Of a DNA stretch of 64,000 nt, positions 19,698 to 64,000 are shown piece after piece. The number at the start of each line of letters is the position of its first letter. Position 1 is the first letter of the stretch. The position numbers and the translations under genes are program-made. The notes under the pieces were generated by a model that made no database searches, was not told where the DNA came from, and saw only the letters and a program-made list of their open reading frames with translations. The stretch is from a virus, in IMG/VR virus record IMGVR_UViG_3300045988_183866. One strand, written 5' to 3'.

Positions 19698-19729
19698 CGT
19701 AAAAAACTTCTAATTTTCAGAATAATTAT

Positions 19730-19760
19730 TGACCGTTGCTGCAAAGTAAGTAATATAATA
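19730..19760 (+). promoter_or_regulatory. Promoter of the conserved-spacer family (copy a): TTGACC-gTTGCTGCAAAGTAag-TAATAT
   Basis: Matches a 7-member family with -35 TTGCAA/TTGACA, a 16-17 nt spacer containing TTGCTGCAAAGTAG, and a TAtAAT -10. It lies upstream of giant adhesin gene 2. Confidence 0.55.
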
Positions 19761-29671: not shown

Positions 29672-29704
29672 GCCGAGCGGTGATAAGCCGCTCGGCTTTT
29701 TTCT
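29672..29704 (+). terminator. Rho-independent terminator
   Basis: Hairpin gccgagcgg-tgataa-gccgctcggc followed by T6. Confidence 0.8.
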
Positions 29705-29733
29705 TTGCTATTTGCTGCAAAGTAGATACAATA
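29704..29733 (+). promoter_or_regulatory. Promoter of the conserved-spacer family (copy b): tTTGCT-aTTTGCTGCAAAGTAGA-TACAAT
   Basis: Conserved motif TTGCTGCAAAGTAGATACAAT about 65 nt upstream of the lipoprotein gene at 29798. Confidence 0.5.
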
Positions 29734-49929: not shown

Positions 49930-49944
49930 CGGGAGGGCAACACA

Positions 49945-50199: not shown

Positions 50200-50447
50200 A
50201 AGATAAACTGAAAAAGGTAGGAACGACTATTGCGAATTTCGTGAAGGCAATTCCTTCTTTCGTCAAGAGCACGCCTAAGAAGCTTCACAATTTGGTTGCA
50301 CCCAAAAATGTGACTTGGCCGAGTATGCACAACACGCTCCATCGAACCGGAGCAGTTCTTGTTGTGAGTGCTGTATCCGCCGTTATTATTGGCATTATGG
50401 ATGCGGCATACGCTCTGTTGCTTCACGTTCCGTTCCTGTTCGTTTAA
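50196..50447 (+). CDS. SecE-like small membrane protein (Asp4/SecE-like)
   Basis: The ATG overlaps the upstream stop (ATGA), and the RBS aggaggtg is present. KKLHNLVAPKNVTWPSMHNTLHRTGAVLVVSAVSAVIIGIMDAAYALL matches the SecE signature (kkVtWPsrkE + single TM). Confidence 0.55.
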   Translation: MKDKLKKVGTTIANFVKAIPSFVKSTPKKLHNLVAPKNVTWPSMHNTLHRTGAVLVVSAVSAVIIGIMDAAYALLLHVPFLFV

Positions 50448-50461
50448 AATACTGCCCCGGT

Positions 50462-50498
50462 AGGCAACCTGTCTGCCGGGGTCTTTTTTATAAAGGAG
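50462..50498 (+). terminator. Rho-independent terminator ending the secY2-secG-secE-like operon
   Basis: Hairpin ccccggtagg-caacctgtct-gccgggg followed by T6. Confidence 0.6.
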
Positions 50499-50505
50499 TT
50501 TTTTT

Positions 50506-51669
50506 ATGAAAAAAAATGCAAAAGAGATTTTGGCAGTCATCAGTGCCGCATGTATTGCATTGACCGCGTGTGGCAAAAACGTGACCGATGCAAGTACATC
50601 TGAGACTGCGGAAACAGCCACCTCCGAAACGGCGACCGCTATTGAGTATGACCTCGGTCTTGATGATGATGGGTATTTTCGCAATGTGACTGCATCCAAG
50701 TACATAAAAATGCCCAAGGATTATAAGGAGTATACGGTCAGCAAAGATGTATACGCCGTTACAGACGAGGAGATTCAAAATGAGTTGGATTATTTTCAGT
50801 CCAATTACAAGCTGACGACAGAGGTAACAGACCGCGCCGCACAGGAAGGCGATGTTGTGAACATTGACTATGAGGGTACGGTTGATGGTGTTGCTTTTAC
50901 CGGTGGAACAACAGAAGACTACGATTTGGAACTCGGTTCCAATACATTTATTGACGGATTTGAAGACCAAATCGTCGGGCATAACACGGGGGATTCGTTT
51001 GACGTCACAGTAACATTCCCTGATGGATATAGCAGTACAACAGATAGAACTACAGGCGAGCAGACTATCGAACTCGCCAACAAGGAAGCTGTTTTCCATG
51101 TAACGCTTAATAAAATTTCTCAATATAGCATGACAGATGCTGATGTTGCCGGTATCATGAGTGGCTACAAGCTGCAAGACGGTACTGCTGTAACCACAGT
51201 AGCTCTGCTTCGTGAATATGTTGAAGAGAATCTTCGGATGAATAAGATTCAGAATGAGATTGAACAGTATTTCATTGACAATGTAAAACTCAAAAAGGAT
51301 ACGACAGACCTTGTCAATCTGAGTCTTGAAACTAACTTGAAGTATGTCGAAAACGAAGCAACTGCCTACAATATGGACTTGGAGACATTCGTTCAGACAT
51401 ACAGCAATTATAAGACCTCGGAGGAGTATTCAGAAAGTCTTCGTAGTCAGACGGAAGAAAATGTTTTACTGAGCCTTGTTGCGCAGTATCTGGCAGAGGA
51501 ACAGGACTATAAACCGTCTGTCGATGAAGTGAAAGCTTATATTGGCAGTAACTACGATAACGCCGTTGATACCTATGGAGCAGGTCCTTTGGCACAGGAG
51601 TGTATGTATAACAAGATTATGGGCAACTACTGCATTGATGTGTACGAGCGGTCTGCCGCAGCTGAGTAA
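50506..51669 (+). CDS. Trigger-factor-like lipoprotein (FKBP-type PPIase domain plus TF C-terminal domain, with a lipoprotein signal replacing the ribosome-binding domain)
   Basis: The RBS aaggag precedes the ATG. MKKNAKEILAVISAACIALTACGK is a signal II / lipobox. AVTDEEIQNELDYFQSNYKLTTEVTDRAAQEGDVVNIDYEGTVDGVAFTGGTTEDYDLELGSNTFIDGFEDQIVGHNTGDSFDVTVTFPDGY closely parallels the trigger-factor PPIase domain (..GDrVtIDFtGsvDGeeFeGGkaedf.L.lGsg.mIpGFEdgi.Ghk.Ge.f.idVtFPe.Y). A TF-like C-terminal helical domain follows. Confidence 0.75.
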   Translation: MKKNAKEILAVISAACIALTACGKNVTDASTSETAETATSETATAIEYDLGLDDDGYFRNVTASKYIKMPKDYKEYTVSKDVYAVTDEEIQNELDYFQSNYKLTTEVTDRAAQEGDVVNIDYEGTVDGVAFTGGTTEDYDLELGSNTFIDGFEDQIVGHNTGDSFDVTVTFPDGYSSTTDRTTGEQTIELANKEAVFHVTLNKISQYSMTDADVAGIMSGYKLQDGTAVTTVALLREYVEENLRMNKIQNEIEQYFIDNVKLKKDTTDLVNLSLETNLKYVENEATAYNMDLETFVQTYSNYKTSEEYSESLRSQTEENVLLSLVAQYLAEEQDYKPSVDEVKAYIGSNYDNAVDTYGAGPLAQECMYNKIMGNYCIDVYERSAAAE

Positions 51670-51680
51670 GGTGATGTATT

Positions 51681-52652
51681 ATGGCAAAAACACCTATTAT
51701 TCCACCACTGCCCAAAGAAGAATATTTCGAGCAGGAACTTGGTGCGTACAATTACATTCCAAATGATGAGGATGATGGAACTGGTGAAAACTTCCCTCAT
51801 CAAAAGGCAAGCCATGACGAGGATGACAATGAATCGATGGATGCGATGGACGTGTCAGAGGGCAAAGAGAAACGGCGATTTTCCATCTGGACAGTTTTGT
51901 TGGTCGTAATTTGCATCGTTCTTATTGCCATGATTGGCTATATTGGATGGAAGGCGTATGATTACTATCATATTCCTGCATATGAAACAGGAGACATCTC
52001 CGACGATGTAGAAGAACCCGTTTCTACCCCCTCGATTCTTATCCCGTCTTCTAATTCAAGTGAGAGTGATTCAGAACCGGAACCGACACCAAAGCCAGCG
52101 TATTCCAAAAACACCGTTGGTTACTTAACCGTTCCCGGCGTTGATGTTACAGATGAGCCCATTTTGCAGCATCCCACAGACGATGATTATTACCTGACTC
52201 ACAATGAGTTCGATAGGGAAAGTATCTGGGGCGCTTATTTTGTTCCTTCCGAATGGAATGTCAGCAATGTTGACGATATGTACAGAGTAACTGTTATTTT
52301 TGGACATAGCAACGGAAATAGTATGCACAAGAAATTCAGTGTTTTGAAATACTTTCGCGATGTCAACTTTGCAAAGGAACATCGGTATATTTATCTTACC
52401 TTGGGTGAACAGCAGACACGATGGAAAATCTTTGCTGTTGCCGATTATCCTATTGACCCAAGTTATACCATTGCGAATCCGGATGATTCGTATTTCCTGA
52501 CAGAGATTGCAAGTATGAAAGCTTACTCTTACAATCAGTATGCCACAGAAGTTGGATTGAATGATAAGGTTTTGATTTTGTCCACCTGTTCAGGCAGTGA
52601 TAATTACGATACTCGTTTTATTGTATGTGCAAAACTTGACGAAGTCTTCTGA
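51681..52652 (+). CDS. srtB: Class B sortase (SrtB family) with an N-terminal cytoplasmic segment and a TM anchor
   Basis: TVGYLTVPGVDVTDEPILQHPTDDDYYLTHNEFDRESIWGAYFV matches SrtB (ivGWikl.gT.lnYPVlqg.dndyYL..dF.re....GsiFmD). VTVIFGHSNGNSMH is the catalytic His. VLILSTCSGSDNYDTRFIVCAKL is the TLSTC catalytic Cys plus the conserved Arg. TM helix WTVLLVVICIVLIAMIGYIGW. Confidence 0.9.
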   Translation: MAKTPIIPPLPKEEYFEQELGAYNYIPNDEDDGTGENFPHQKASHDEDDNESMDAMDVSEGKEKRRFSIWTVLLVVICIVLIAMIGYIGWKAYDYYHIPAYETGDISDDVEEPVSTPSILIPSSNSSESDSEPEPTPKPAYSKNTVGYLTVPGVDVTDEPILQHPTDDDYYLTHNEFDRESIWGAYFVPSEWNVSNVDDMYRVTVIFGHSNGNSMHKKFSVLKYFRDVNFAKEHRYIYLTLGEQQTRWKIFAVADYPIDPSYTIANPDDSYFLTEIASMKAYSYNQYATEVGLNDKVLILSTCSGSDNYDTRFIVCAKLDEVF

Positions 52653-52660
52653 AAAAGCTC

Positions 52661-52776
52661 TTGCATTATGCTGCGAAGTTAATATAATTGAGACATAACA
52701 TAAATCAAATGATTTAACTGTATTATTGCAATCGGCAACTGAGCCGCCAGTGGATTGTCCCATTGGCGGCTTTTTG
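52661..52776 (+). promoter_or_regulatory. Conserved-spacer promoter (copy g: TTGCAT-tATGCTGCgAAGTtaa-TATAAT) followed by a GC hairpin + T-run leader element
   Basis: -35 at 52661, -10 at 52683, then gacataacataaatcaaatg. Hairpin gccgccagtgg-attgtcc-cattggcggc followed by T5 at 52744-52775. The architecture matches copies c-f. Confidence 0.55.
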
Positions 52777-52830
52777 CTGTTTATATAGATGTCCGAACAT
52801 TAACCTATTTAAAACATGGAGGTATTCGCT

Positions 52831-53145
52831 ATGTTAAACTTCTTTGATGCTGTTGCATCTATTGCTGCTTTGGTTTGGGCTCTCGCTGTGGGGGCTTGTA
52901 TCTTCCTTGCCATCGATTGGGATGGTTTATTTGAGGCTAAATACATCAAAGTTTTTCTCGTTGTCGCCATCATTGCGCAAGCCACGCTGTTCATCATCAA
53001 AAAAATTGGTGCTGTTCTGTATTGCGGTATGTTCGCCAGCCTTACAATTTCAGTTCTTGGAATGATTGAGAACTTGTATTTGTACGCATATTTGGCGATT
53101 ATGATTGCAGCTATGTTTGGCATGACAAAGCGCTATCACAGATAA
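52831..53145 (+). CDS. Small 3-TM membrane protein (paralogue A)
   Basis: The RBS ggaggt precedes the ATG at 52831. MLNFFDAVASIAALVWALAVGACIFLAIDWDGLFEAK...MFGMTKRYHR. Confidence 0.5.
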   Translation: MLNFFDAVASIAALVWALAVGACIFLAIDWDGLFEAKYIKVFLVVAIIAQATLFIIKKIGAVLYCGMFASLTISVLGMIENLYLYAYLAIMIAAMFGMTKRYHR

Positions 53146-53200
53146 TGCGATTCGATGTCCATAAACCCGTAAACCATCAGTAATTTTGGAGGTAACTGAT

Positions 53201-53518
53201 ATGAGTAACTTTTTTGACACAGCAACCCTTATTTTCGCTTTTGTTTGGGTCATCTGCATGGGAGCCAGCTTCATTGCTGTTCTTGACTGGGACGGAATCA
53301 TTGAGGCCAAGCGTCTCAAGCTTCTTGTTCCTGCGGCAGTCGTTGCCCAGATGTTGATGTTTTTGGTCGATAAACTTGGTGCCGCTTTTTATTGTGGTGC
53401 TTTTTCGAGCTTTACCATCGTGATTCTGAACATGATTGAAAAGGGATACACTTACATCTACCTTGCATTGGCGCTTGCGGCTATGTTCGGTATGATGCAA
53501 CGCTATCACAGAGATTAA
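53201..53518 (+). CDS. Small 3-TM membrane protein (paralogue B, tandem duplicate of the gene at 52831)
   Basis: The RBS ggaggt precedes the ATG at 53201. MSNFFDTATLIFAFVWVICMGASFIAVLDWDGIIEAK...MFGMMQRYHRD is about 45-50% identical to paralogue A. Confidence 0.5.
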   Translation: MSNFFDTATLIFAFVWVICMGASFIAVLDWDGIIEAKRLKLLVPAAVVAQMLMFLVDKLGAAFYCGAFSSFTIVILNMIEKGYTYIYLALALAAMFGMMQRYHRD

Positions 53519-53563
53519 AACGATTTACAACTAAATCGTCCACACGAAAGGAAAGGTAAAAAA

Positions 53564-54163
53564 ATGGAAAAGATTCTCAATGTAAAAATTCACAATCAGA
53601 CCGAGGAAGTCGCCAGTAAGGCAAAGAACGAGGCTCGCAACACTGCCAAGAATCCCCACATGGCAATGTTCGTCTTGTTTGCCGTCCTGTTCAACATTCT
53701 GGCGTTCGTCGTTCCCGCCAACGCAAATGACCTGTGGGGTTCTCGCATGAGTGCCTATAAGGTCGGCTGCGGCATCGGGTGTGCTGTTTTGGCGTGGTGC
53801 CTGCTGCATCTGCGCGACATTATTCGTGAACCAAGTCTTATCGGGGCTTATCAGATGTCCTACGATAAGCAGCGCACATTTAAAAAGCGCGGCATCATTG
53901 CAAGTATTGGTACTGTTCTGAATAGTGTTGTGTATGCGGCACTTACGGTAACGATTGCTTCGCTGCCAACGCTTGGCGCTCTCGCAGTCAGTTCTATTTA
54001 TTGCAAAAGTTTCGCAGGATTTGAGACGCTTGATGTTGGTATCATGATTAGCGGAATCATTCTTTATCTTGGCGCAATGCTTCTTAATCGTTTCGGCCGA
54101 ACGATTGATGCTTTCGTTGAGAAGAAGAAGTCTCCGAAAATTTCTTCGGATAACAAAGAATAA
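53564..54163 (+). CDS. Hypothetical polytopic membrane protein
   Basis: The RBS aaaggaaaggt is present. About 4 TM helices. Confidence 0.5.
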   Translation: MEKILNVKIHNQTEEVASKAKNEARNTAKNPHMAMFVLFAVLFNILAFVVPANANDLWGSRMSAYKVGCGIGCAVLAWCLLHLRDIIREPSLIGAYQMSYDKQRTFKKRGIIASIGTVLNSVVYAALTVTIASLPTLGALAVSSIYCKSFAGFETLDVGIMISGIILYLGAMLLNRFGRTIDAFVEKKKSPKISSDNKE

Positions 54164-54174
54164 ATAACACTAAG

Positions 54175-54207
54175 GCGCTTCCCCGTAATACGGGAGGCGC
54201 TTTTTAT
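54175..54207 (+). terminator. Rho-independent terminator
   Basis: Hairpin gcgcttccccg-taata-cgggaggcgc followed by T5. Confidence 0.75.
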
Positions 54208-54219
54208 TGTATCCTGTAC

Positions 54220-54376
54220 TTGCAAATTGCTGCAAAGTTAATAATATATAGTTATCCGATAAATAAAATCACACAATGCATCGTACCAGAGTTTTGTGGG
54301 CGTGCATGATTGAATTATCGCCAATCACAATGTACTAAAGGTAGCTATTTTTGAGAAAATAGCTGCCTTTTTTATT
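54220..54376 (+). promoter_or_regulatory. Conserved-spacer promoter (copy c: TTGCAA-aTTGCTGCAAAGTTaa-TAATAT) with a downstream hairpin + T-run leader
   Basis: Hairpin aggtagctatttt-tgag-aaaatagctgcct followed by T-rich sequence at 54337-54375, about 95 nt after the -10. The gene at 54411 follows. Confidence 0.55.
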
Positions 54377-54410
54377 TAGAAAAATAATATATTACGGAGG
54401 ATATGTGAAC

Positions 54411-54662
54411 ATGAAAACTTTTAACGAGTATGTCGCGGAGACTACTGCTCCTATCATTATGGACGCTGTTCGTATGCAGAAGTACGAAAAGCGCATTCGT
54501 TCTGCACGCATCGAAAAGAGAAAGCGTACCATGCGCAGCGACAAGAGCATTTCTATTGTTAAGAACACGCTGAAAAAGCGTGGCTACTACAGTGAGAAGA
54601 CCAAGGGTGTTCCCGCGCGTTCTATCAACAGCGATGTCGAAAAGTATTTCGAGGTGGCGTGA
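54411..54662 (+). CDS. Small basic protein (84 aa)
   Basis: The RBS ggagg precedes the ATG at 54411. The protein is K/R-rich. Confidence 0.4.
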   Translation: MKTFNEYVAETTAPIIMDAVRMQKYEKRIRSARIEKRKRTMRSDKSISIVKNTLKKRGYYSEKTKGVPARSINSDVEKYFEVA

Positions 54663-54674
54663 TAGGAGGACACT

Positions 54675-54971
54675 ATGAGTTACGAGACTGTGATGACGGC
54701 AGCAAAAATCATTGCCACTGCGCATCCTATCGCACGAGGGGTTTGTAAGTGCGATACGCCTGCAGACGTATCTTTCAAGGATGTTGCCAGTACGCTTCTC
54801 GATTCCGGATGGGAAAGCGTTCTTATTGCCGATAAAAATCTGTTGATTGCGAACACCGATGTCGCAAGAAACGATTATGTGAATGCTCATCCCAAGAGCA
54901 AATTCACGATTTATCGACGGAAAATCGACAAGCACGGCATCCCTCGGAAAGTCACCGAAGTGTGGGGGTGA
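54675..54971 (+). CDS. Hypothetical protein (98 aa)
   Basis: The RBS taggagga is present. Moderate coding signal. Confidence 0.4.
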   Translation: MSYETVMTAAKIIATAHPIARGVCKCDTPADVSFKDVASTLLDSGWESVLIADKNLLIANTDVARNDYVNAHPKSKFTIYRRKIDKHGIPRKVTEVWG

Positions 54972-55645
54972 AATGTGTGAGCTGCACTCGAACCGTTTGG
55001 CTGATTGACACTGAGAATATCCCTAAAAAATGGGTAAAGACAGTGTATTTCAAGACCAAAAGAGATAAACTAATTATCTTTCTCGGTCCAGAGGCCACCT
55101 GTATGTCACTCAAAGAGTTGCAGGTATTCCTGACAAAATATCCAGCTAACCAAGTTGAGTTCTGCAATTCCAATGCAGGAAAAAACAGCATGGATTTTCA
55201 CATTGCGGCCAAGCTTGGAAGCCTTTGCACAACAGGGAAGAAAAGCCATTATATCATCGTATCGGGAGATAAAGGATATGATGGGCTTATTCAGACCATG
55301 TGCGAAAATGGATTTTGTGTTAGTCGAATGACTTGTGATGCAGCACCCGCACAAAAAGAATCACCGGAAACGGTGAAAAGTATTTCTGCTATCACTGATA
55401 GCAAAAGCAAGGAAGTTTTTTGCGCACGACTTCGAGAATTGTGTATTCAGCAAAAAATTAACACTGAAAACACAAACAAGATTATCGATGCTGCAAAGAA
55501 AATTTCTTCTCCTTACAAAAAGAATTTCATCACGCATGTCAATCCTAAGATTTCTCATGCCGGTGCCGGAAATGCACAAAACGCAGCGCATGCTGCAGCA
55601 CTGATGAGAGCTGTAAAGAAAGAAATATATCCTTTGCTTGCATAA
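54962..55645 (+). CDS. NYN/LabA-like domain protein (putative nuclease)
   Basis: VWLIDTENIP...KDKLIIFLG...GKNSMDFHIAAKLG...HYIIVSGDKGYDGLIQTMCENGFCV fits the NYN pattern (iDgeN..........GKNaaDial..d.....vlvSgDsDF.plv..l.e.G..V). The start is uncertain (GTG). Confidence 0.5.
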   Translation: MGVKCVSCTRTVWLIDTENIPKKWVKTVYFKTKRDKLIIFLGPEATCMSLKELQVFLTKYPANQVEFCNSNAGKNSMDFHIAAKLGSLCTTGKKSHYIIVSGDKGYDGLIQTMCENGFCVSRMTCDAAPAQKESPETVKSISAITDSKSKEVFCARLRELCIQQKINTENTNKIIDAAKKISSPYKKNFITHVNPKISHAGAGNAQNAAHAAALMRAVKKEIYPLLA

Positions 55646-55655
55646 TTCAAAACCC

Positions 55656-55688
55656 AACCGCTTACCTTTTCGGGTGAGCGGTTTTTAT
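55656..55688 (+). terminator. Rho-independent terminator
   Basis: Hairpin aaccgcttacc-ttttcg-ggtgagcggtt followed by T5. Confidence 0.7.
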
Positions 55689-55712
55689 TAAAAAGTATAA
55701 GAAAGGAATATA

Positions 55713-56060
55713 ATGCTTAAAGATATTACAATTCAGCATGGTGATTTTGGGACTGTTCAGCCGGAGATTATTCATATCTCTGTCAAGGGAAAGTCTCTCG
55801 GCACTGGTTCTTTTTTTGGTATGTTGTTAAGGCATATTGAAAAAGAAAAGGGAACTGATAGCGGAATGGCTGCATTTTCTCTTGCGATGTTGGCTGATAA
55901 GCCTGCTGTTATCTATGTTGATGATGTTATGGCGGCCGCCGATGACACTTTGCTGAATCCCGGCGCACTTATCAGCTACGGTGTGGATATCGCCAAGAAC
56001 GCATCGCCCAAATGGACAGTCATTATTACGAAGAGTATTGATACCGCACTTTGTAAATGA
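55713..56060 (+). CDS. Hypothetical protein (115 aa)
   Basis: RBS aaggaatat; coding periodicity. Confidence 0.4.
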   Translation: MLKDITIQHGDFGTVQPEIIHISVKGKSLGTGSFFGMLLRHIEKEKGTDSGMAAFSLAMLADKPAVIYVDDVMAAADDTLLNPGALISYGVDIAKNASPKWTVIITKSIDTALCK

Positions 56061-56076
56061 GGAGGGCATAATCGAT

Positions 56077-56616
56077 ATGAAATATAGTTGGAACGCTAAA
56101 ACGCCTATGACTTCTCCTGATATGGTTGCGAAACCTATCAAGTGGAATCCGATGAGTGAGGACTGGAAAAAACGAGTGGAGGCAATGCAGCTGTACAACG
56201 AGGACGCTACCGCGCCTTGGCTCACAAACGAAATGAAAAAGACTTTGCGTGCTCTGCGTGATAGAATTTTAACTTTCGGCGGTGATGAGGTTTTGCTCAA
56301 TACCCGTGATGAGGATGCGGAAAAAGTTTTGGAACGAGGACAGTTCTTCTATGGCTCCAAGTACATGAAGAAGGGCGAAGATTGTCGTTGCCATCAGAAC
56401 GCTGCTTATCTGTGGGATGCAAATCGTGGCAGATGTCAGATTGCGACCGGATATGCCCTGAGCGAAGATGGCCTTTGGCGACAGCATTCGTGGGTCGTTC
56501 AGCCTATGACGCGTACCGTTAAGGTGTGGGAAACCACCGTCAAGCGTGTTGCCTACTTTGGTGTTGTGTTGAACGATGAGGAATGTCAGGAGTTCTTTGA
56601 CATCGTGACATATTAA
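56077..56616 (+). CDS. Hypothetical protein (179 aa)
   Basis: The RBS gaggaggg precedes the ATG at 56077. Confidence 0.45.
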   Translation: MKYSWNAKTPMTSPDMVAKPIKWNPMSEDWKKRVEAMQLYNEDATAPWLTNEMKKTLRALRDRILTFGGDEVLLNTRDEDAEKVLERGQFFYGSKYMKKGEDCRCHQNAAYLWDANRGRCQIATGYALSEDGLWRQHSWVVQPMTRTVKVWETTVKRVAYFGVVLNDEECQEFFDIVTY

Positions 56617-56632
56617 GAAGCGAGGTACATTT

Positions 56633-56854
56633 ATGACTTTCCCAAATCGAGAAATCGTCGCTGCGCTCCGTGCCGAATATCCAGCTGGGACACGCGTGAA
56701 ACTGCTGAAAATGGATGATATTCAGGCTCCGCCTATTGGAACACTCGGCACAGTTTCAGGTATAGACGATACCGGCAGTATCATGGTTTGCTGGGATAAC
56801 GGCTCTGGTCTGTTCGTGGTTTACGGTGAAGATGTCGTTGAAAAAGTACCGTGA
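56633..56854 (+). CDS. Small hypothetical protein (73 aa)
   Basis: The RBS agcgaggt precedes the ATG. Confidence 0.4.
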   Translation: MTFPNREIVAALRAEYPAGTRVKLLKMDDIQAPPIGTLGTVSGIDDTGSIMVCWDNGSGLFVVYGEDVVEKVP

Positions 56855-56885
56855 ATACGATGTTGCATTCCTGTTGTGGCTATCT

Positions 56886-57010
56886 TGTCAATTGCTGCAA
56901 AGTAGATATAATTAAGGAACTAAGATAAATCAAAGTATCAATTCCTTGACTTGTTTTAGTTCAAAATCTGTTCGTGCAGCCATCTCAATCGAGATGGCTG
57001 TTTTTTTTGT
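56886..57010 (+). promoter_or_regulatory. Conserved-spacer promoter (copy d: TTGTCA-aTTGCTGCAAAGTAGA-TATAAT) with a conserved leader ACTAAGATAAATCAAAG and a hairpin + T-run
   Basis: Hairpin gcagccatctc-aatc-gagatggctg followed by T8 at 56978-57009. The RBS aaggagg and the gene at 57032 follow. Confidence 0.6.
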
Positions 57011-57031
57011 TGTGTTAAGGAGGAAATTGAA

Positions 57032-57229
57032 ATGTTTACAATTAACGTAAAAGAAAACAACGCCGTCAAGAAGTATATCTGCAGCTCCGCAAAAGCCGTG
57101 GCAGCAAAAATGTCTGAGCTTGCTCTGTGGACGAAGGATGTGCAAATCAGTTGGGGGGATGATGTCTACGGCACCGCTTACGATGCCCAGCGACAGATTC
57201 CGGCCAACGATTTTCTGGCTTTTGTTTGA
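57032..57229 (+). CDS. Small hypothetical protein (65 aa)
   Basis: The RBS aaggagga precedes the ATG. Confidence 0.4.
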   Translation: MFTINVKENNAVKKYICSSAKAVAAKMSELALWTKDVQISWGDDVYGTAYDAQRQIPANDFLAFV

Positions 57230-57250
57230 TTGAGAAGGGAGATAAGTGCT

Positions 57251-57991
57251 ATGTTTAAGATTTGTAATGATAAGACTTATTATGTTGTTCAGACCACCTC
57301 TGAAGATGTAGTTGTCGAAATCTATACCAAAAAAGACGGACGAGGTAGTGGCATTAGTCTTCATGAAATGCATCTCGACCTGTGCCGTGCTATCCGAAAG
57401 CTACAGCATGATGGCTATACAATCATGAAGGTTTATCCTGCTATGGGTGACCGAAGAGAGAGTATTGATGTGCTGTCTATGCCGGAATTCATCCAGTCTG
57501 CGAAACGCCCCGACAACGATGTTGAGGAAGCGGTTGTCTTTTCTTACTTCGAGTCCGGAGCAACATTCCAGTTGCCTTGCAAGGTAAACAAGGAAACGCA
57601 CGAAATTTTCGATGTCACCTGTGCAGCAATGCCGTGTGACGACGACTGTTTCAGTTATGCAGAAGTGGTAATCAACGGCAAGGATTATCCTGTCAATTTT
57701 ATTGACGATATTCTTATCGAAAACAATGTTGATGATGCGCTGGATGAGTTTTATAGAATTCAGCAGACAGGCGAGTATTGGCAGCCTGATGGTAACAAAA
57801 CGCTGGATGATGCCATTCACGAATGCCGTTGGGCGATTCTGAAAGACGCCTTGATGCAACGCGGTCATGATGCCGTTGCTGATTTTATTGGCACTGATGT
57901 TTCCAGTGATTCTTACGAAAGACTGTTGGATGAAACGGAAGCACAGATGCCGAACGAGGAATTCGAAAAGTTCTGGGAGAGATACATTTGA
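57251..57991 (+). CDS. Hypothetical protein (246 aa)
   Basis: The RBS gaagggag precedes the ATG at 57251. Its 3' end is duplicated at 58483-58560. Confidence 0.45.
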   Translation: MFKICNDKTYYVVQTTSEDVVVEIYTKKDGRGSGISLHEMHLDLCRAIRKLQHDGYTIMKVYPAMGDRRESIDVLSMPEFIQSAKRPDNDVEEAVVFSYFESGATFQLPCKVNKETHEIFDVTCAAMPCDDDCFSYAEVVINGKDYPVNFIDDILIENNVDDALDEFYRIQQTGEYWQPDGNKTLDDAIHECRWAILKDALMQRGHDAVADFIGTDVSSDSYERLLDETEAQMPNEEFEKFWERYI

Positions 57992-58108
57992 GGAGGACTT
58001 ATTTTGGAAAATATGTATGTGTTGAGCCGTAAAGCGTAAGAGCGATACTACCAACATTAACGTGTTCCAAAAAGTCATCGCTGAAGACAAAAAGAAGGAG
58101 ATGGAAGC

Positions 58109-58450
58109 ATGATATCCTATTATCCGGGTGACCTACCTCAGATTACGGGTAATCCAGACGATATTTTCCTTTGTGACCCTATTAAAGAGGCAGCATCTGA
58201 ATACTTGCAGTCGGAAGCTAAGCGTCGAAAGGAAATCATCGCTCAAATCGAAAAAGCTGATGCCATTACATATCAGTTAAACACTGGTATTTACATTATT
58301 GTAAGCCCATCATTTGAGCCAGATTATGCCTACCGAGTCACTTATATGGATTCGCAAGGGCCATATGCTCACCACGATTTTGCAACAGCATCAAAAGTTG
58401 CTGATGAAATTGGGTCTGGTGCTGTAGCATTGGAAGCCGTTATCATTTGA
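58109..58450 (+). CDS. Hypothetical protein (113 aa)
   Basis: The RBS agaaggag precedes the ATG. Confidence 0.4.
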   Translation: MISYYPGDLPQITGNPDDIFLCDPIKEAASEYLQSEAKRRKEIIAQIEKADAITYQLNTGIYIIVSPSFEPDYAYRVTYMDSQGPYAHHDFATASKVADEIGSGAVALEAVII

Positions 58451-58587
58451 CGAAAATAAATACCCTAATAAGGAAAGGAAATGTTTCCAGCGATTCCTAC
58501 AAAAGACTGTTGGATGAAGTGGAAGCACAAATGCCGAGCGAGGAATTCGAGAAGTTCTGAGAGAAGTATATTTGAGGAGGACTTATT

Positions 58588-58776
58588 TTGGAAAATATGT
58601 ATGCGCTAAGCCGTAAAGACCCGTTTTTTGGAGATGTGCGTTTTTACGTAGAGTGTAAGAGTGATACTGCCAACATTAACGAAGCGACGCGGGTCAGCTT
58701 GGATGAGGCGATGAAGCGGGCAAAGTTCCTGAATTGTGGAGCTTGCCACTATTCTTGCGTACGCGTACCCGCGTAA
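58588..58776 (+). CDS. Small hypothetical protein (62 aa). A truncated paralogue lies at 58001-58037.
   Basis: The RBS gaggagg precedes a TTG start. The same RBS and start context at 58001 yields only LENMYVLSRKA*. Confidence 0.35.
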   Translation: MENMYALSRKDPFFGDVRFYVECKSDTANINEATRVSLDEAMKRAKFLNCGACHYSCVRVPA

Positions 58777-58793
58777 GACAAAGGAGAAAATAA

Positions 58794-59591
58794 ATGGCAA
58801 ACAATATCATGAATATCATGTCTGTTTCTTTCAATTCTCAGGCAGAGTTGGAGGATTTTCTGAATTGTGTCAAGGGAAAAGACGATGATGGCGAAAAAGA
58901 TTTTTCGCTTCAGTCTGTTGTTCCTATGCCGGAATCACTGCAAATCGTATCGCCATGTGACAGGATGCTCGCATGGGCGGCCGTAAATAAATACGGAATT
59001 GACCCGGAGAAGTATCCGGAAAACGTAAGAAAGGCTATTTGCAGAGAAACTTTTCTCCTGCACAGGAAGGAAAAACTTACTGCATCAGATATGGTTGGTG
59101 TTTGCAAGGAAGCTGCGGAAGCTCGCTCCAAACTGGAACACGTGAAAGATAGCAAACTCATCAACCTGAAACGTATCCCCTATAATGTCGAAGAGTTCGA
59201 TACTGTAGCGGAGCGTGCTTTGGAAAATGCCGTAAAATATGGATATGCTTCATGGTATTATTGGCGTGTCGCAAACTGGGGCGTAAAGTGGGATGTTTTT
59301 GATGTGAATATCCGTAGAATAAATGATACGGAAATTGCCATCAATTTTAAAACCCCTTGGAATACACCTGCATGCGCCATTGTCGAACTGAGCCGTAAAT
59401 TTCCACACGCCAATATTCGTGTAAAATATGCGGATGAGGATATCGGAAGTAATTGTGGCTGGTATGCGCTTTGCAAAGGAGATTTTGTTGACGACGGTTA
59501 TCCCAGCAAAGGTAACGCAGCAATCGATTTTGCTTGTAATATCTGGGGCTACGACGCCAATACGTATCGTGCAGAGATGAGTTTGCTGTAA
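58794..59591 (+). CDS. Hypothetical protein (265 aa)
   Basis: The RBS aaaggaga precedes the ATG. Confidence 0.45.
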   Translation: MANNIMNIMSVSFNSQAELEDFLNCVKGKDDDGEKDFSLQSVVPMPESLQIVSPCDRMLAWAAVNKYGIDPEKYPENVRKAICRETFLLHRKEKLTASDMVGVCKEAAEARSKLEHVKDSKLINLKRIPYNVEEFDTVAERALENAVKYGYASWYYWRVANWGVKWDVFDVNIRRINDTEIAINFKTPWNTPACAIVELSRKFPHANIRVKYADEDIGSNCGWYALCKGDFVDDGYPSKGNAAIDFACNIWGYDANTYRAEMSLL

Positions 59592-59648
59592 GTAAAGCGA
59601 AAAAATAAAACCCCCGGAAAAAGTTGAAGCGCCACTAAATAGCTGCGC

Positions 59649-59756
59649 TTGCAAATTGCTGCAAAATCGATATACTAAGTATATTCGATAGATAAAATAC
59701 AATTACAATTCAAAATCAACATACCGCTATCTCGTAAGAGGTGGCGGTATTTTTTG
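59649..59756 (+). promoter_or_regulatory. Conserved-spacer promoter (copy e: TTGCAA-aTTGCTGCAAAaTcga-TATACT) with a hairpin + T-run leader
   Basis: Hairpin accgctatctc-gtaa-gaggtggcggt followed by T7 at 59721-59755. Confidence 0.55.
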
Positions 59757-59784
59757 TTATCGCCGAAAGGATGATGAAGAAAAA

Positions 59785-60240
59785 TTGATAAAAAAGACAA
59801 AAAGCTGTTTATCAAGTCAGGAGTTTCCCGGCAAAAATATCGTTTGTGTTTTTTGTGATAGCAGTGGTGTTTTCAAAAACGAATCTATTGAAAGCATGTT
59901 TCCGGATGCCAAGGTACGGTATGACAAATCTGAACATCACTTGGGACATGTTGTGAACTGCTATGGTAATAAAAGGACCGTAATAGCAGATATGATTTGT
60001 CTTGAAAATAACAAGGTGAATTACGGATACTTATACGGTTGTTTCCTACAAGTGGTCATGAAAGCAAAGCTGGCCGAAGCAAATATTCTGCTTATGAGCC
60101 CCGGCTGTAAAATCACAGAAAATCAATGGCACAAAATCAAGCCAATCCTTGAAGGTGCTCTTGAGAAAGAGGGACCGGATGTGGACGTGATTGTTTGCTT
60201 GTCGAATGATGATAATGTCATTCGCGTTCGTTGTGCCTGA
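59785..60240 (+). CDS. Hypothetical Cys-containing protein (151 aa)
   Basis: TTG start from the ORF track. The RBS is weak, so the start is uncertain. Confidence 0.35.
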   Translation: MIKKTKSCLSSQEFPGKNIVCVFCDSSGVFKNESIESMFPDAKVRYDKSEHHLGHVVNCYGNKRTVIADMICLENNKVNYGYLYGCFLQVVMKAKLAEANILLMSPGCKITENQWHKIKPILEGALEKEGPDVDVIVCLSNDDNVIRVRCA

Positions 60241-60262
60241 CTGTTTATTGAGGAGGATTACT

Positions 60263-60571
60263 ATGACAAAGGTTTTTACAATTGTTGCTAATGAGATTGT
60301 TGACCGTGCAGTGGAATGCACACTGATTCAGTTTAGCTATAATCCGGAGCAAATCCATGACCCGGAAAGCGTCCTGCGCGGCGCAATCAAAGATTATCTC
60401 AAGACGGACGAAGGCAAACGACAGCTTGAAATCAACTGTGGTTGCTGGAACTGGGGCGATGTCGATGACATTCCCGGCTCGTTCTTCTTGAATTACGGTC
60501 TGGGTAAAATTACACCACTTGATGTGGATATCATCGTTGACCGCAATGAGAGCTTTGCGGACGAGAATTGA
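60263..60571 (+). CDS. Hypothetical protein (102 aa)
   Basis: The RBS gaggagga precedes the ATG at 60263. Confidence 0.45.
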   Translation: MTKVFTIVANEIVDRAVECTLIQFSYNPEQIHDPESVLRGAIKDYLKTDEGKRQLEINCGCWNWGDVDDIPGSFFLNYGLGKITPLDVDIIVDRNESFADEN

Positions 60572-60588
60572 TGAAAGGAGTAAATAGA

Positions 60589-61353
60589 ATGTATATTTCG
60601 AGTGCATGTGATGTGGTAATTGAGATTACCCGTCGCTGTAATATGTGCTGTGCGCATTGTTTGCGTGGTGATGCGGAGGCGGTCGATATTCAGGAAAGAT
60701 ATATCGATGCGTTTCTTGACAGTTTTGCTAATGCAGGATACATCAGTTCCTTGACCTTTACGGGTGGAGAAATTTCTTTGAACATTCCTGCTATTCGCTA
60801 TACTTTGAACGCCGTAAGAGAGCGAAACATTTCCGTTGGGAGTTTTTATATGGTAACCAACGGGAAAGCCGTCGATAAGATGGTAGAACTCGCTTTGGCG
60901 AGCCTCGAATGGTGGAATTATTGCGATGACAAGGATGACTATTCGTGTGGTCTTTGTATCAGCAGCGATGATTTTCATGAAGAAATTCCCCGCGAAAGTG
61001 CGAGTATTCTTAGCGGTTTGAGATATAATCGTAATGATAAAGTAACGGATTTTCGCAAGCAATATCTCATTAACGAGGGTCGTGCCAAAACTATCAGCGC
61101 AAATCAGATTCTAAAGAGAGAACCTATAGTTTCGGAACTTGTGATTGAATATGAGAGAGATTGTAAACCGGGAAATGAAGCCGGAATCAATATCACTGAT
61201 GGAGAACTGTATCTGAATGCCATCGGTGATGTTGTCGTCGGTTGTGACTGGTCCTATGAATCCCAGAGGAAGTATCGTATTGGCAATGTTATGGATGAAA
61301 AATGGTTGGAAAACATTCGTAGCAGCGAATTGTGCATCGAAGAAAATAGCTAA
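60589..61353 (+). CDS. Radical SAM domain protein
   Basis: The RBS aaaggag precedes the ATG at 60589. ITRRCNMCCAHCL is a CxxxCxxC cluster motif. LTFTGGEISL matches the GGEP-type SAM-binding motif. Confidence 0.55.
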   Translation: MYISSACDVVIEITRRCNMCCAHCLRGDAEAVDIQERYIDAFLDSFANAGYISSLTFTGGEISLNIPAIRYTLNAVRERNISVGSFYMVTNGKAVDKMVELALASLEWWNYCDDKDDYSCGLCISSDDFHEEIPRESASILSGLRYNRNDKVTDFRKQYLINEGRAKTISANQILKREPIVSELVIEYERDCKPGNEAGINITDGELYLNAIGDVVVGCDWSYESQRKYRIGNVMDEKWLENIRSSELCIEENS

Positions 61354-61382
61354 AAAATAATAAAAACAGAAAGGAAGAAATT

Positions 61383-62408
61383 ATGACTATCAATTTAACT
61401 CGTGAGGATTTTGAGCAGGCTATCAAATCCGGCGCATCCGTGTTCGAAGGCAACACAATTCCCGATACCGGAAAACCGTCCGGGCGCTACTACCGTTTCA
61501 TTCGTGTTCCGCTCGCCAATGGCGAACACAAGGTAGATGCCTTGTACGGGCAGCGGTTTTATGGAACCTTGGAAAAGAAACCCGTAACATTCAACCAAGA
61601 GATACGCTTCCTTTGCCTCGTTGTCGACAATGCCAAAACCGTCAATGAAACACAGGACTTCAAAACGATTTTCTGCCGTTCTTCTTTTACCTCGGATTCT
61701 GTCATAGAGGAAATGGCACAGAAGCTGTTCGATATGTTCCGAGAGAATGTGACGGAAGAAGACAAGAAGAAAATTCTCAAGGGCGGTTATTACGACAAGA
61801 TAGCACGACAGAACGCTTTCTGTCGCATAATAAAGGGGTATAAGAATTATCGCAGCCCTATTGACAGCATTGTCGATGAGATTGGAAATGGGTCTTGCTT
61901 TGGCCTGACATCCACAAATGCCGATGAACTGGTAGTGGATTATCTTGCTAATCCCACCGGCTGGGCTGAACGGACGATGGAGAAAATCAAAAAGGCAAAT
62001 TCCGGGCGGTCTGGACGCCTATACGGGATTACATTGGCTGTGGTGGAAGAGTTGACGGAAGAGTATATGAGAAAGTACAATAGTCCGAACACTCAGGAAA
62101 TCATGTTCAGGCTTCTTGTGGAACTTGCTAAGCAATACGAAACCGTTCGCCTTGTCCTGAACATCAACGGTAAAACGACCGAAGTAAAGTATCCGGTCAA
62201 AGGTATGATGAACAGTGATATCCTGTACGGTGGAGGTTTTTCGACTTGCAACATCACCCCGCGCAGTGAAGAAAATCGCATCGAGGAGTTTATCGCGAAC
62301 AACGATTCGCAACTCGAAGACAATCGCAGAATTCCCATCAAGTACATTCCCGAAGTCTATTACGGGAATAAGTTGATTTGGAAGAATCCGAATTTTGCAA
62401 ACACCTGA
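61383..62408 (+). CDS. Hypothetical protein (341 aa)
   Basis: The RBS aaaggaag precedes the ATG. Confidence 0.45.
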   Translation: MTINLTREDFEQAIKSGASVFEGNTIPDTGKPSGRYYRFIRVPLANGEHKVDALYGQRFYGTLEKKPVTFNQEIRFLCLVVDNAKTVNETQDFKTIFCRSSFTSDSVIEEMAQKLFDMFRENVTEEDKKKILKGGYYDKIARQNAFCRIIKGYKNYRSPIDSIVDEIGNGSCFGLTSTNADELVVDYLANPTGWAERTMEKIKKANSGRSGRLYGITLAVVEELTEEYMRKYNSPNTQEIMFRLLVELAKQYETVRLVLNINGKTTEVKYPVKGMMNSDILYGGGFSTCNITPRSEENRIEEFIANNDSQLEDNRRIPIKYIPEVYYGNKLIWKNPNFANT

Positions 62409-62434
62409 TTCCCAAAAAGGAGGAAATCGAAAAT

Positions 62435-63841
62435 ATGATTGCCAAAATTGGTAAAATGATGACCAAAAGGGAAGATAAATCGTTTTCCTACGAAGAACTT
62501 GCCGCAATGCTGAAAACCAGCCCTGATGCCCTCAAAACATTCGAGGACACCTACAAGAAACAGGTGCTGGACAGCGGGGCATTATCCGAGAACTTTTTAC
62601 AGTGGGATACCGCTACTGTCAAAGCTATGTTTGACAAGAGGGTGCCGTTTACGCGGGACCTTGAAACACTCATTGACCGTATCGTAGGTGAGTTAACAGA
62701 TGGTACTCGCCTGTACATCTACAATGATAAACGCGGCGGATATTATGTAAACTATGCAGCATCTCGATACGCTGTGCCGGTAACGAACAATGACCTGAAA
62801 AAATACCCGGAAGAGCTCAGACCTCAGCTGACAGGAAATCTCGTGAAGGTCGATATTTCGGAGCCGTCGTATAAGATTCTGCTTCAGAATTACGCCGAGT
62901 ACAAGGATGTACGCGATGACCGCATGAAAAAGTTCTACTACAACCAGTTCCGTCAGGGTCTTGATATTCTTGACCTCGACGACTTCACCTACCAGATGCT
63001 CGAAATGAATCCCAACACGATGGGATTCTGGCTTCCGCCGCTGGCAAAAGCGTTGTACGGGAACAAATTCTTCAGGATTCCTGATACCAAGATTTTGCGT
63101 GTTCCGCTGCCGATGCTGCAGCTCACTCGCCTTGGTTTTGAAACCCTGAATCCCGTAACCAAGGAAATCGTGAACCGTTATTGCAAGCGGATATTCAAGC
63201 TGGATGAGCACGAGGATTACTTCATCAAGACCGGAACTTATTCTTCCAAGTATGAGTTTCGCAACGCTCATATCCATGACCCAAAGGAAATCAATGAGAT
63301 GGGCGAGTATTTCCTGTTTCTGAATCATCTGACCTGTTCTATGGCTTCGCCGTTGAATAATGCCTGCTTCTATGGTGCTAATACAACAAACGAGTGGGTG
63401 CTCAGGGAATATGTCAAGGACAAGGAACACAACCCGACCATCTACAACGGTTTGCCGCTGCATACTGAGTACCGCGTATTCGTCGATTTCGACGCTGATG
63501 AGGTGCTGGGTATCAGTCCTTATTGGCGTGCCGATGTGATGAAGGGTAAGTTCAAGAACGCAAGTACGCCGCAGGAACGCCACGACTATGTTATCTATCA
63601 GATGCACGAGGATATCCTGCAATCTCGATACGATGACAGTGCTAGGATGATTTTGGATGAAATCAAGAAGATTCTTCCCGCTGTCGAATTGGTAGGGCAG
63701 TGGAGTATTGATGTAATGCGCAATGGTGATGATTATTACATCATCGACATGGCGCTTGCTGAAAACTCCGCTCTGAACGATTGCGTGCCACGCAACAAAC
63801 TTCGAGCCTACCCGCAGCAGTGGTTGCCTGAACATGCTTAA
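62435..63841 (+). CDS. ATP-grasp-like hypothetical protein (468 aa)
   Basis: The RBS aaaggagg precedes the ATG at 62435. YFIKTGTYSSKYEF, EYRVFVDFDADEVLGISPYW and GDDYYIIDMALAENSAL resemble an ATP-grasp fold. Confidence 0.35.
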   Translation: MIAKIGKMMTKREDKSFSYEELAAMLKTSPDALKTFEDTYKKQVLDSGALSENFLQWDTATVKAMFDKRVPFTRDLETLIDRIVGELTDGTRLYIYNDKRGGYYVNYAASRYAVPVTNNDLKKYPEELRPQLTGNLVKVDISEPSYKILLQNYAEYKDVRDDRMKKFYYNQFRQGLDILDLDDFTYQMLEMNPNTMGFWLPPLAKALYGNKFFRIPDTKILRVPLPMLQLTRLGFETLNPVTKEIVNRYCKRIFKLDEHEDYFIKTGTYSSKYEFRNAHIHDPKEINEMGEYFLFLNHLTCSMASPLNNACFYGANTTNEWVLREYVKDKEHNPTIYNGLPLHTEYRVFVDFDADEVLGISPYWRADVMKGKFKNASTPQERHDYVIYQMHEDILQSRYDDSARMILDEIKKILPAVELVGQWSIDVMRNGDDYYIIDMALAENSALNDCVPRNKLRAYPQQWLPEHA

Positions 63842-63857
63842 GAAGACGACACCGTTC

Positions 63858-63990
63858 TTGCAAACTGCTGCAAAGTAGCTACAATAAAAGCACTAAGATA
63901 AATAAAAAGCGCTATTTGTTAGCTTCTATTATCTTAATTTAAAATCAAGTTACATTGCGACCATCTCGTCAGAGATGGCCGCTATTTTTT
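63858..63990 (+). promoter_or_regulatory. Conserved-spacer promoter (copy f: TTGCAA-aCTGCTGCAAAGTAGc-TACAAT) with the conserved leader CACTAAGATAAAT and a hairpin + T-run
   Basis: Hairpin gcgaccatctc-gtca-gagatggccgc followed by T6 at 63957-63990. The downstream gene lies beyond the window. Confidence 0.55.
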
Positions 63991-64000
63991 GCGAAAGGAA

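Follow-up and report, generated by a model that had tools for sequence, protein, structure and literature searches.

The question raised by the 64-kb stretch of DNA analysed here (IMG/VR record IMGVR_UViG_3300045988_183866, hereafter the window) is why one and the same promoter recurs between its genes and why, in most copies, a hairpin resembling an intrinsic terminator stands between this promoter and the gene that it would serve. By its gene content the window represents part of a "Hodor" megaplasmid, one of the conjugative plasmids found in Bacillota of the human gut. Analyses of the window and of related contigs from IMG/VR, where Hodor plasmids are catalogued as viruses, indicated that promoter, leader and terminator form a single cassette of 110-150 bp. 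This cassette is a regulatory unit, undescribed so far and highly repeated, of a plasmid family that is very prevalent and was itself described only recently. The comparisons presented below show it to be an obligate unit that occurs dozens of times per plasmid, always in gene direction, and show both its spacer element (the sequence between the -35 and -10 hexamers) and its terminator to be under selective retention. The cassette probably lets one plasmid-made factor switch on many accessory genes together.

A search of the window with the 14-mer TTGCTGCAAAGTAG, allowing up to two mismatches, gave six matches against 0.46 expected, and none of 100 shuffled sequences reached six; a seventh site, copy c, has the variant core TGCTGCGAAGT. 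The profile hidden Markov model (HMM) built from 85 family copies returned exactly seven window sites with E values of 3e-11 to 1.4e-5, the next match having an E value of 2.6, and the family of seven promoters described in the original prediction is therefore real. All seven copies are on the + strand and intergenic, with the first base of the -35 TTG at 19729, 29705, 52661, 54220, 56885, 59649 and 63858 (copies a to g). Their geometry is constant and consists of TTGc, a spacer (tTTGCTGCAAAGTnaa) and TAtAaT; the spacer had been given as 16-17 nt but is 16 nt in seven of seven copies. In copies c to g the promoter is followed, as had been proposed, by an A-rich leader box, a GC hairpin with a T-run, a ribosome-binding site (RBS) and a gene, a layout confirmed by alignment, terminator scan and folding. 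The terminator-like hairpins of these five copies have fold z-scores of -3.4 to -6.7 against shuffled controls and stand high in the ranking of the 36 sites detected by the terminator scan in the window, where 16.5 were expected. The stem CCATCTC..GAGATGG, which had been attributed to several copies, is present in e and g, while copy f differs and has CTATCTC..GAGGTGG.

A pattern scan of IMG/VR revealed many contigs with multiple hits which, together with the window, gave 118 promoter instances, 85 of them distinct. The position table of the 85 copies showed a TTGc -35, a 16-nt spacer of the form nn-tTTGCTGCAAAGT-naa and a TAtA(a/c)T -10, then a conserved A, the likely start site, 7 nt past the -10 (74 of the 85 copies) and an A-rich box at about +6..+16 (aaAAtaaAAa). 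The hexamer TGCAAA at spacer nt 6-11 is kept in 82-85 of the 85 copies, while the neighbouring positions are free to vary. The spacer core TTTGC-T-GCAAA is a perfect 11-bp palindrome centred near -23 and is unchanged in more than 100 copies, although the adjoining promoter positions and the leaders have widely diverged; a core that stays constant in diverged surroundings argues for selection and not for recent descent. The same core was recovered when the search was started from an independent leader anchor.

A sequence that is invariant between the hexamers would accord with a plasmid sigma factor, or a sigma-appropriating activator like MotA/AsiA of T4, for which the spacer motif would be part of promoter recognition. 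The motif is plasmid-specific, and the 16-nt spacer is sub-optimal and has no TG extension, unlike the other promoters of the element. However, all copies retain TTG and TAnnnT at the spacing of sigma-A promoters, the leader terminators are left unexplained, and no sigma-family protein was found in the window or in the related sequence scanned; the supposed sigma-like protein at 41548 has no sigma family match in Pfam, PHROGs or PDB sequences. Among the explanations considered here this is the least likely and, in our judgement, a very improbable one.

A leader terminator, defined as a hairpin with a T-run 40-130 nt past the -10, was found by script in 75 of the 85 copies, and in about 80 (~94%) when those recognised by eye are included. 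The hairpin starts 13-188 nt past the -10, mostly 43-93 nt, and lies downstream of the predicted start site; its stems vary in sequence yet stay paired, with compensatory changes. The start codon is mostly found 21-40 nt behind the stem and no promoter fits between the two, so that the genes behind the cassettes have no promoter of their own and would be expressed only by read-through. About 20 of the 85 copies carry an additional canonical terminator that abuts the -35 upstream, which indicates that the leader terminator acts on the cassette's own transcripts and is not merely the end of the upstream operon. In a search anchored on the leader (TTCAAAATC plus a hairpin), the exact promoter core stood upstream of all genuine leader-terminator units, and none lacking the promoter was encountered. 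At least 37 cassettes were counted in the examined third of a 346-kb contig and at least 30 in a 241-kb contig, all on one strand, with a median spacing of 2.1 kb.

This arrangement is not shared by the other promoters of the element, which uses two distinct promoter types. The second, ordinary class (TTGACn, 17 nt with a TG extension, TATAAT) is found at 28097, 29052, 32846, 45442 and 46965. Its order is terminator and then promoter, those at 28097, 29052 and 46965 following immediately on a terminator, and reading by eye revealed no leader terminators behind these canonical promoters; the order promoter, leader, terminator is thus specific to the cassette class. The operon of cassette d contains a further terminator without promoter, at 55656-55683, so that read-through is needed there too, as processive antitermination would give. 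This terminator and another strong intrinsic one at 50454-50482 are each followed within ~25-30 nt by an RBS and a start codon (genes 55713 and 50506) with no recognisable promoter between. Placed directly ahead of genes in this way, they suggest that read-through is a general design of the plasmid, beyond the cassettes.

The cassette has a counterpart outside the window group. A sortase homologue with 75% identity marks a second set of contigs, up to 389 kb in length, which are probably the other Hodor group. Unbiased k-mer counting in these sister contigs revealed an analogous cassette, with the promoter cTTGCCa, 16-nt spacer aaatGTGCGAAccGca, TAnAAT, 8 nt and TACGATAGATAcCAU. Its leader contains a 5' hairpin (GUACGA..UCGUAC) and continues with the linker AAUUCACAAUUUCGC and a terminator, ahead of an RBS and ATG. 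The terminator is present in 116 of the 120 distinct genuine copies and the RNAs would be 86-112 nt long. In the aligned terminator helix 98% of the cells are paired and 8 of 12 pairs have changed on both sides, values that were reached in none of 500 shuffles. A covariance model derived from the sister RNAs only gave the window cassettes f, g, e and d as its top four hits in the window (E 0.004-0.008), and the two cassette families are therefore homologous.

Comparison of the two lineages showed a -35 of TTGc in the window group and TTGCC in the sister, a 16-nt spacer in both, and TGCAAA and TGCGAA, respectively, at spacer nt 6-11, the latter in 90-118 of the 120 sister copies. The rest of the core, which is the palindrome in the window group, is TGCG-AAC-CGCA in the sister, with a weaker right arm and its centre ~4-5 bp further downstream. 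The initially transcribed box reads GAUA(A/G)AUA in the window group and GAUAGAUA in the sister, and the linker AAUUCAAAAU and AAUUCACAAU, respectively, while terminator and RBS distance are common to both. The spacer element is lineage-specific yet invariant, which suggests a sequence-specific reader that diverged together with its sites, and the two lineages offer a natural pair of orthogonal promoter codes. When 185,579 species genomes were scanned with the pattern, the number of matches was about that expected by chance, and the sole related match was a 1.7-kb Hodor-like fragment binned with a Peptococcaceae metagenome-assembled genome (MAG). A motif absent from these genomes save for one such fragment points to a reader that is probably plasmid-encoded; a host chromosomal regulon is unlikely given the near-chance number of matches.

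The retention of the terminator in nearly all of the 85 copies, the covarying stems, the obligate promoter and the homologue in the sister lineage strengthen the view, already put forward in the original prediction, that the units are attenuation or antitermination leaders. This is the best supported class of interpretation, and the anatomy on which it rests stood up, with sigma-A-type promoters whose spacer is under strong selection, a short leader, an intrinsic terminator and a gene without its own promoter. The specific leads that had been attached to it found no support. A NusG paralogue of the LoaP type had been suggested, but a scan of the window's open reading frames (ORFs) and of 116 small ORFs from related loci found no NusG or KOW protein, and the idea of a switchable antiterminator fold in the RNA is unsupported by the structure of the leaders described below.

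Two main classes of leader were distinguished. Class I, the commonest, comprises cassette f and two copies past the window end, with RNAs of ~76 nt. Its A/C-rich leader is laid out as AUCC(G/A)AUA(A/G)AUAAAA, a short variable stretch of low complexity, AUUCAAAAUCGAUAU and the terminator; ~40 nt of it are unstructured, and the 5' end is less paired than in shuffled controls. Cassette f (59649..59757) has its promoter at 59649-59676, the predicted start at 59683, the unstructured leader ATTCGATAGATAAAA..AATTCAAAATC, a terminator with T-run at 59721-59750 and the next gene within 59785-60240. In class I a 13-15-nt sequence, CAAA(G/A)TCGATATAC, occurs twice, once spanning the -10 and once immediately before the terminator stem (59663-59676 and 59709-59724 in the window); another example is found within 9516-9640 of the overlapping contig L050.

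Class II leaders give RNAs of 95-115 nt (e and g) and have a hairpin from +2 with compensatory changes (UA/CG/AU), followed by the single-stranded linker UUCAAAAUCUG and a terminator which also covaries. Cassette e (56885..57009) has its promoter at 56885-56912, the predicted start at 56919, the 5'-terminal hairpin at 56919-56960, the linker GTTCAAAATCTG, a terminator with T8 at 56976-57001 and ATG at 57032. Cassette g (63858..63992) has its promoter at 63858-63885, the predicted start at 63892, a 5' hairpin, the linker TTTAAAATCAAG and a terminator with T-run at 63957-63982, the hairpin being listed at 63961-63978; its gene begins just beyond the window end (position 5313 of L050), and the array continues on the same contig with two further cassettes 3.0 and 4.2 kb beyond the end. 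Cassette e is identical across ten plasmid variants from different metagenomes (L210-L219) except for the T-run (window 57001-57009), which has 6, 7 or 8 T, and one single-nucleotide polymorphism that changes GATAAAT to GACAAAT in the A-rich box of one variant. The variation in T-run length could reflect tuning of termination or an assembly artefact.

The remaining copies differ in their leaders. Cassette c (52661..52780) has its promoter, with the variant core, at 52661-52688, the predicted start A at 52695, a small 5' hairpin, a terminator with T-run at 52741-52772, an RBS and then ATG at 52831. Immediately behind it, two paralogous small membrane proteins of ~105 aa are encoded in tandem (52831-53145 and 53201-53518). 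Cassette d (54220..54378) has its promoter at 54220-54247, the predicted start at 54254, a 124-nt leader with the box CCGATAAATAAAA, a terminator with T-run at 54337-54370 and the gene start at 54411; a second, separate terminator lies immediately 5' of its promoter (54172-54203). Copy a (19729..19756) consists of TTGACC, the 16-nt spacer GTTGCTGCAAAGTAAG and TAATAT, or TATAAT 3 nt further on, and gave the weakest HMM score of the seven (E 1.4e-5). It lies downstream of a terminator at 19660-19690 and upstream of the gene for the 2647-aa surface protein (ATG 20075), and is atypical in its 310-nt leader with only a weak hairpin and T-run near 19832-19897. Copy b (29705..29732; TTGCTA, spacer, TACAAT) abuts the preceding terminator at 29672-29696 and has no leader terminator, the ATG of a 359-aa exported protein being at 29798.

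The leaders allow several kinds of RNA-based control to be weighed. They contain no ATG on reading and are too short and variable for a leader peptide, a T-box or a riboswitch; the lack of ATG, together with the lack of an alternative antiterminator fold in class I, makes a self-sensing riboswitch or a peptide-dependent attenuator unlikely. A type III toxin-antitoxin system of the ToxIN kind was also rejected, because tandem repeats are lacking in the leaders and 46 unrelated families are represented among the downstream genes, and a general 5'-end stabiliser hairpin would hold for class II only, the 5' ends of class I being unpaired. Known RNA-based antitermination elements differ as well. 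The put, EAR, conAn2 and canT elements are structured RNAs of ~70 to >300 nt, unlike the short unpaired leaders of class I. Like the Hodor arrangement, conAn2 and canT act in long co-directional operons of conjugative elements whose terminators are bypassed only by polymerase from the proper promoter, and spurious transcription is suppressed; they are, however, single large RNA elements present once per element (canT activity needs 341-452 nt), whereas the Hodor leaders are present in dozens of copies.

It was also considered that the terminated transcripts of 75-125 nt are themselves the functional products, regulators or decoys encoded by a family of small RNA genes, with read-through being incidental. 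Conserved RNA boxes are shared by the two lineages (GAUAAAUA/GAUAGAUA close to the 5' end and AAUUCA(A/C)AAU ahead of the terminator), the 5'-terminal hairpin of class II is backed by covariation, and a hairpin followed by a single-stranded linker and a terminator is a typical small RNA layout. On the other hand, the start codon usually lies 21-40 nt past the hairpin and the genes have no other promoter, so that the unit acts like a 5' leader; its variable central stretch is short and low in complexity, and dozens of near-redundant copies per plasmid have no obvious target. Comparison with Rfam gave no family at the gathering threshold and, at E < 5, only weak terminator-like matches far below threshold. 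The small RNA family, which had been offered as an alternative in the original prediction, is hence weakened relative to cis-acting leaders, and we regard it as improbable.

The first genes behind the cassettes fall into 46 families, most of them without a Pfam match (about 30 of 45 families); the annotated ones encode NrdD, ThyX, an Ig-domain surface protein, an anti-repressor-like protein, an esterase and a nucleotidase. Gene content between cassettes differs among plasmid variants, and homology breakpoints between related contigs fall inside cassettes in 18 of 124 cases against 6.5 expected (~3-fold), although the variable leader alone could break BLAST alignments. The enrichment of breakpoints and the variable gene content make a shuffling role beside regulation plausible, and the cassettes probably also serve as portable linkers for the shuffling of accessory genes.

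Shuffling might even be their only role, as for the PeSL units of T4-like phages: a promoter with a stem-loop would spread with accessory genes by homologous recombination and without a dedicated factor, the spacer being kept by recent descent or for promoter strength. The PeSLs are indeed similar and provide a precedent (PMC2839356, PMC4122927). They too are composite and conserved, ~100 bp in length and many times repeated in one orientation, and combine a sigma-70-type promoter with a stem-loop that serves as terminator; their neighbours are orphan genes, they extend to the RBS, and gene shuffling has been linked to them. The Hodor cassettes likewise have mostly orphan neighbours. Their stem-loop, however, is located between the -35 and -10 boxes or overlaps the -10 and acts on upstream transcription only (PMC2839356, PMC4122927), so that the transcripts of the PeSL promoter itself are not stopped, whereas in Hodor the hairpin is found 40-100 nt past the start site, where it stops transcripts from the cassette itself. 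PeSLs also have no conserved spacer element or leader boxes, unlike the Hodor cassettes, and the host and type of replicon differ. A core that is invariant despite diverged neighbours and leaders indicates selection, and the core of the sister lineage is different but equally fixed. A mobile cassette and nothing else is thus an explanation to which we give little credence.

The anatomy of the cassette matches that of the sites used by the antitermination factors Q and AlpA, and for this reason we prefer, tentatively and at a little under an even chance, to read it as a factor-gated, qut-like, promoter-proximal antitermination site. In the proposed mechanism the order is a host sigma-A-type promoter (TTGc, 16-nt spacer, TAnAnT), an A-rich initially transcribed region (GATAAATA / GATAGATA), a leader of 40-80 nt, the terminator, the RBS and the start codon. 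A plasmid-encoded DNA-binding factor would recognise the spacer element and load onto RNA polymerase at a promoter-proximal pause, and the factor-bound polymerase would then resist the leader terminator as well as later operon terminators. In the absence of the factor only the 75-125-nt RNAs would be made and the accessory genes would be silent. With lambda pR'/qut and PalpB/tB the cassette shares an element between the hexamers, an intrinsic terminator downstream and genes that depend on read-through. In PalpB of Pseudomonas aeruginosa the AlpA binding element lies between the -35 and the -10, with a -10-like CACGAT and a terminator downstream (PMC9371919), and lambda pR' carries AACGAT at +1..+6 (PMC4005639); in this position, among the first bases to be transcribed, a -10-like hexamer brings about a sigma-dependent pause (PMC9371919, PMC4005639). 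The early hexamer nACGAT is common to lambda, PalpB and the sister-lineage cassette, and in the window group a -10-like hexamer starting at -1..+8 was found in 59 of the 85 copies against 34 expected.

If the Q/AlpA-like reading is true, promoter-embedded antitermination goes from a phage switch at one promoter to genome-scale control in Gram-positive gut bacteria, and the cassettes would provide compact, portable promoter, leader and terminator parts for engineering gut Bacillota. It may be supposed further, more doubtfully and well short of an even chance, that there is a plasmid-wide regulon of "licensed transcription" in which one Hodor factor reads the lineage-specific spacer hexamer at several dozen promoters per plasmid and makes polymerase terminator-resistant; until this factor appears, most accessory genes would be silent and give short leader RNAs only; the two lineages would then have diverged in factor and site specificity.

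Several observations weigh against a Q/AlpA-type site. The pause element is inconsistent in the window group: of the seven window copies, c, e and g have the -10-like hexamer and a, b, d and f do not, and over the wider interval -2..+22 its enrichment is weak (71 of 85 copies against 57 of 85 in shuffles). The sister TACGAT occurs at about +2..+7 in every copy but had been included in the anchor of the search. Known Q/AlpA systems serve one or two promoters per genome, whereas Hodor has dozens per replicon, and the replicon is a megaplasmid in a Gram-positive host and not a phage or prophage. Pfam matches to Q, AlpA or HTH_17 were absent among the window ORFs and related proteins scanned, which represent part of each ~350-kb plasmid, and the Q families are diverse in sequence. 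The core, finally, is palindromic, unlike Q/AlpA sites; a perfect 11-bp palindrome is more typical of the operator of a dimeric repressor, and the dyads of the two lineages are centred ~4-5 bp apart.

These last points lead to the possibility that a plasmid-encoded dimeric repressor of the helix-turn-helix (HTH) or ribbon-helix-helix type binds the palindrome TTTGC-T-GCAAA and silences the cassette promoters, with leaky attenuators lowering and insulating expression. The invariant palindrome overlaps the footprint of RNA polymerase, and a dyad position that differs between lineages would be tolerable for a repressor. The plasmid is conjugative (VirD4/TraG was found; PMC12934698), and regulons of establishment genes with shared operators have a precedent on conjugative plasmids of Bacillota (PMC6294495). 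In an established host the promoters might be shut and, on transfer to a naive cell, fire briefly; silencing of a 350-kb plasmid would lower the cost to the host.

In the precedent, Reg576 of the Bacillota conjugative plasmid p576, four promoters carry heptamer repeats in variable arrangement, some of them in the spacer (PMC6294495). The p576 leaders have no terminators but hairpins that were reported to raise expression, probably via stabilisation of the transcript. As in Reg576, several sigma-A promoters of Hodor share a short operator-like motif, which in Reg576 gives coordinated, transient expression after transfer; the Hodor geometry, in contrast, is fixed and a terminator is almost always present. 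KorA/KorB of RK2 and CUP/ArdK of pKM101 are plasmid repressor regulons comparable to Reg576.

A repressor does not explain why ~94% of the cassette promoters and none of the canonical ones precede a terminator that stops their own transcripts, nor why this terminator is retained where another one already precedes the promoter. It also leaves without a role the initially transcribed box and the linker box, which are conserved in both lineages, and no autoregulated repressor gene was found behind the cassettes examined. We hold the repressor to be the main rival, at appreciably less than an even chance; if true, the regulon would be among the larger plasmid-borne operator regulons known to us. 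The cassette combines features of qut-like sites, PeSL-like cassettes and plasmid operator regulons.

The search for a regulator gave some candidates of other kinds. No DNA-binding gene was found directly behind a cassette among the first genes examined, and the cassettes without terminator, considered as possible sites of regulator genes, precede genes whose products are membrane proteins, surface proteins or of unknown kind. On the minus strand of the window one gene alone is convincing, 40291-40953 (RBS GGAGGG); its product shows an HTH-like stretch by eye, GFTADEFAAMLGYSSTAAYNK, and has no Pfam match. The gene is divergent from the operon at 41108, and the 150-bp gap to 41107 contains promoter-like sites and an inverted repeat (TTATATAATTACCG / CGGTAATATAAA); this layout resembles a cI/cro switch and has no relation to the cassette motif. 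The sequence TTGCTGCAAAT at 40720, considered as an operator, lies inside this minus-strand coding sequence and is a chance match. In the related record IMGVR_UViG_3300045988_182990 (L109, 3300-3890), a 73-aa Cro/CI-type HTH_3 protein is encoded at 3666-3887 behind a canonical TG-extended promoter and a terminator and is followed, by eye, by an apparent tRNA gene cluster; no tRNA genes were found in the window. Both the HTH_3 gene and the gene at 40291-40953 have other promoters than the cassettes and, where visible, other inverted repeats.

The assignment of the window to Hodor follows from its genes. Hodor was described in a 2026 preprint as conjugative megaplasmids of human-gut Bacillota (PMC12934698) with a >7300-aa protein, a ~2642-aa protein, SecY/G/E, trigger factor, a class B sortase, ParM and a type IV secretion system, and with related reads in 9349 samples; the words promoter, terminator and intergenic never occur in its text. 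The window encodes two giant surface proteins with MBG_2, DUF11 and CARDB repeats, one of >6514 aa that runs off the window edge and one of 2647 aa, and in addition a flotillin-like protein, a Dam methylase, a ParM/Alp7A-like segregation protein and a long array of small orphan genes. Related contigs encode VirD4/TraG, the Pol III alpha subunit, NrdD, ThyX, LigA, topoisomerase, PARG, NADAR and GmrSD. Because VirD4/TraG, ParM, SecY, trigger factor and the >6500-aa and 2647-aa surface proteins match Hodor, the identity as a phage implied by IMG/VR was rejected. The assembly collection lists the 65-aa protein encoded behind cassette e in 9131 blocks, on contigs up to 372 kb. BLAST of a 24-kb region and of cassette f against PLSDB and INPHARED gave no real match. 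Few large mobile elements of the human gut are as widespread as the Hodor megaplasmids, and nothing has been published on the control of their ~350 kb of mostly orphan genes; the cassette motif is a searchable marker of co-regulated genes and defines a concrete regulon with a testable mechanism.

The surface module occupies 102-28017 and 48589-52652. The >6514-aa protein also has DUF7507 repeats, and the 2647-aa protein is an MBG_2 protein. SecY is encoded at 48589-49929, followed by small ORFs at 49945-50447, one of them SecE-like, and a trigger-factor-like peptidyl-prolyl isomerase at 50506-51669. The 323-aa protein at 51681-52652 has no Pfam match, and its position corresponds to that of the class B sortase gene of PMC12934698. 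In the sister lineage (IMGVR_UViG_3300045988_181067, L223 ~4900-5300; L224-L226) a degenerate CRISPR-like array with a repeat of approximately ATTTCAATCTTATGCAGTCAYRCAGACTGC is found after the sortase gene, replacing cassette c, and is probably the degraded type I-C array mentioned in PMC12934698.

The one related fragment among the species genomes, CAAETY010000143.1 (L005, 1731 bp, from the Peptococcaceae MAG bin), is the only hint of a host taxon in that collection. Its first 163 bp correspond to 807-969 of the window, in the giant gene, with 90% identity; next come a promoter of the cassette type, a zinc-ribbon repeat protein and then another cassette, which is complete. The contig is either a rearranged Hodor variant or chimeric. 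Within the window, a duplication with an insertion affects the 3' end of the 246-aa gene as well as the RBS and start of the ORF that follows (57901-58065 and 58484-58690). Between these repeats plasmid variants from metagenomes hold a 113-aa gene, a 62-aa gene, both or neither, and several short-read assemblies break at the duplication.

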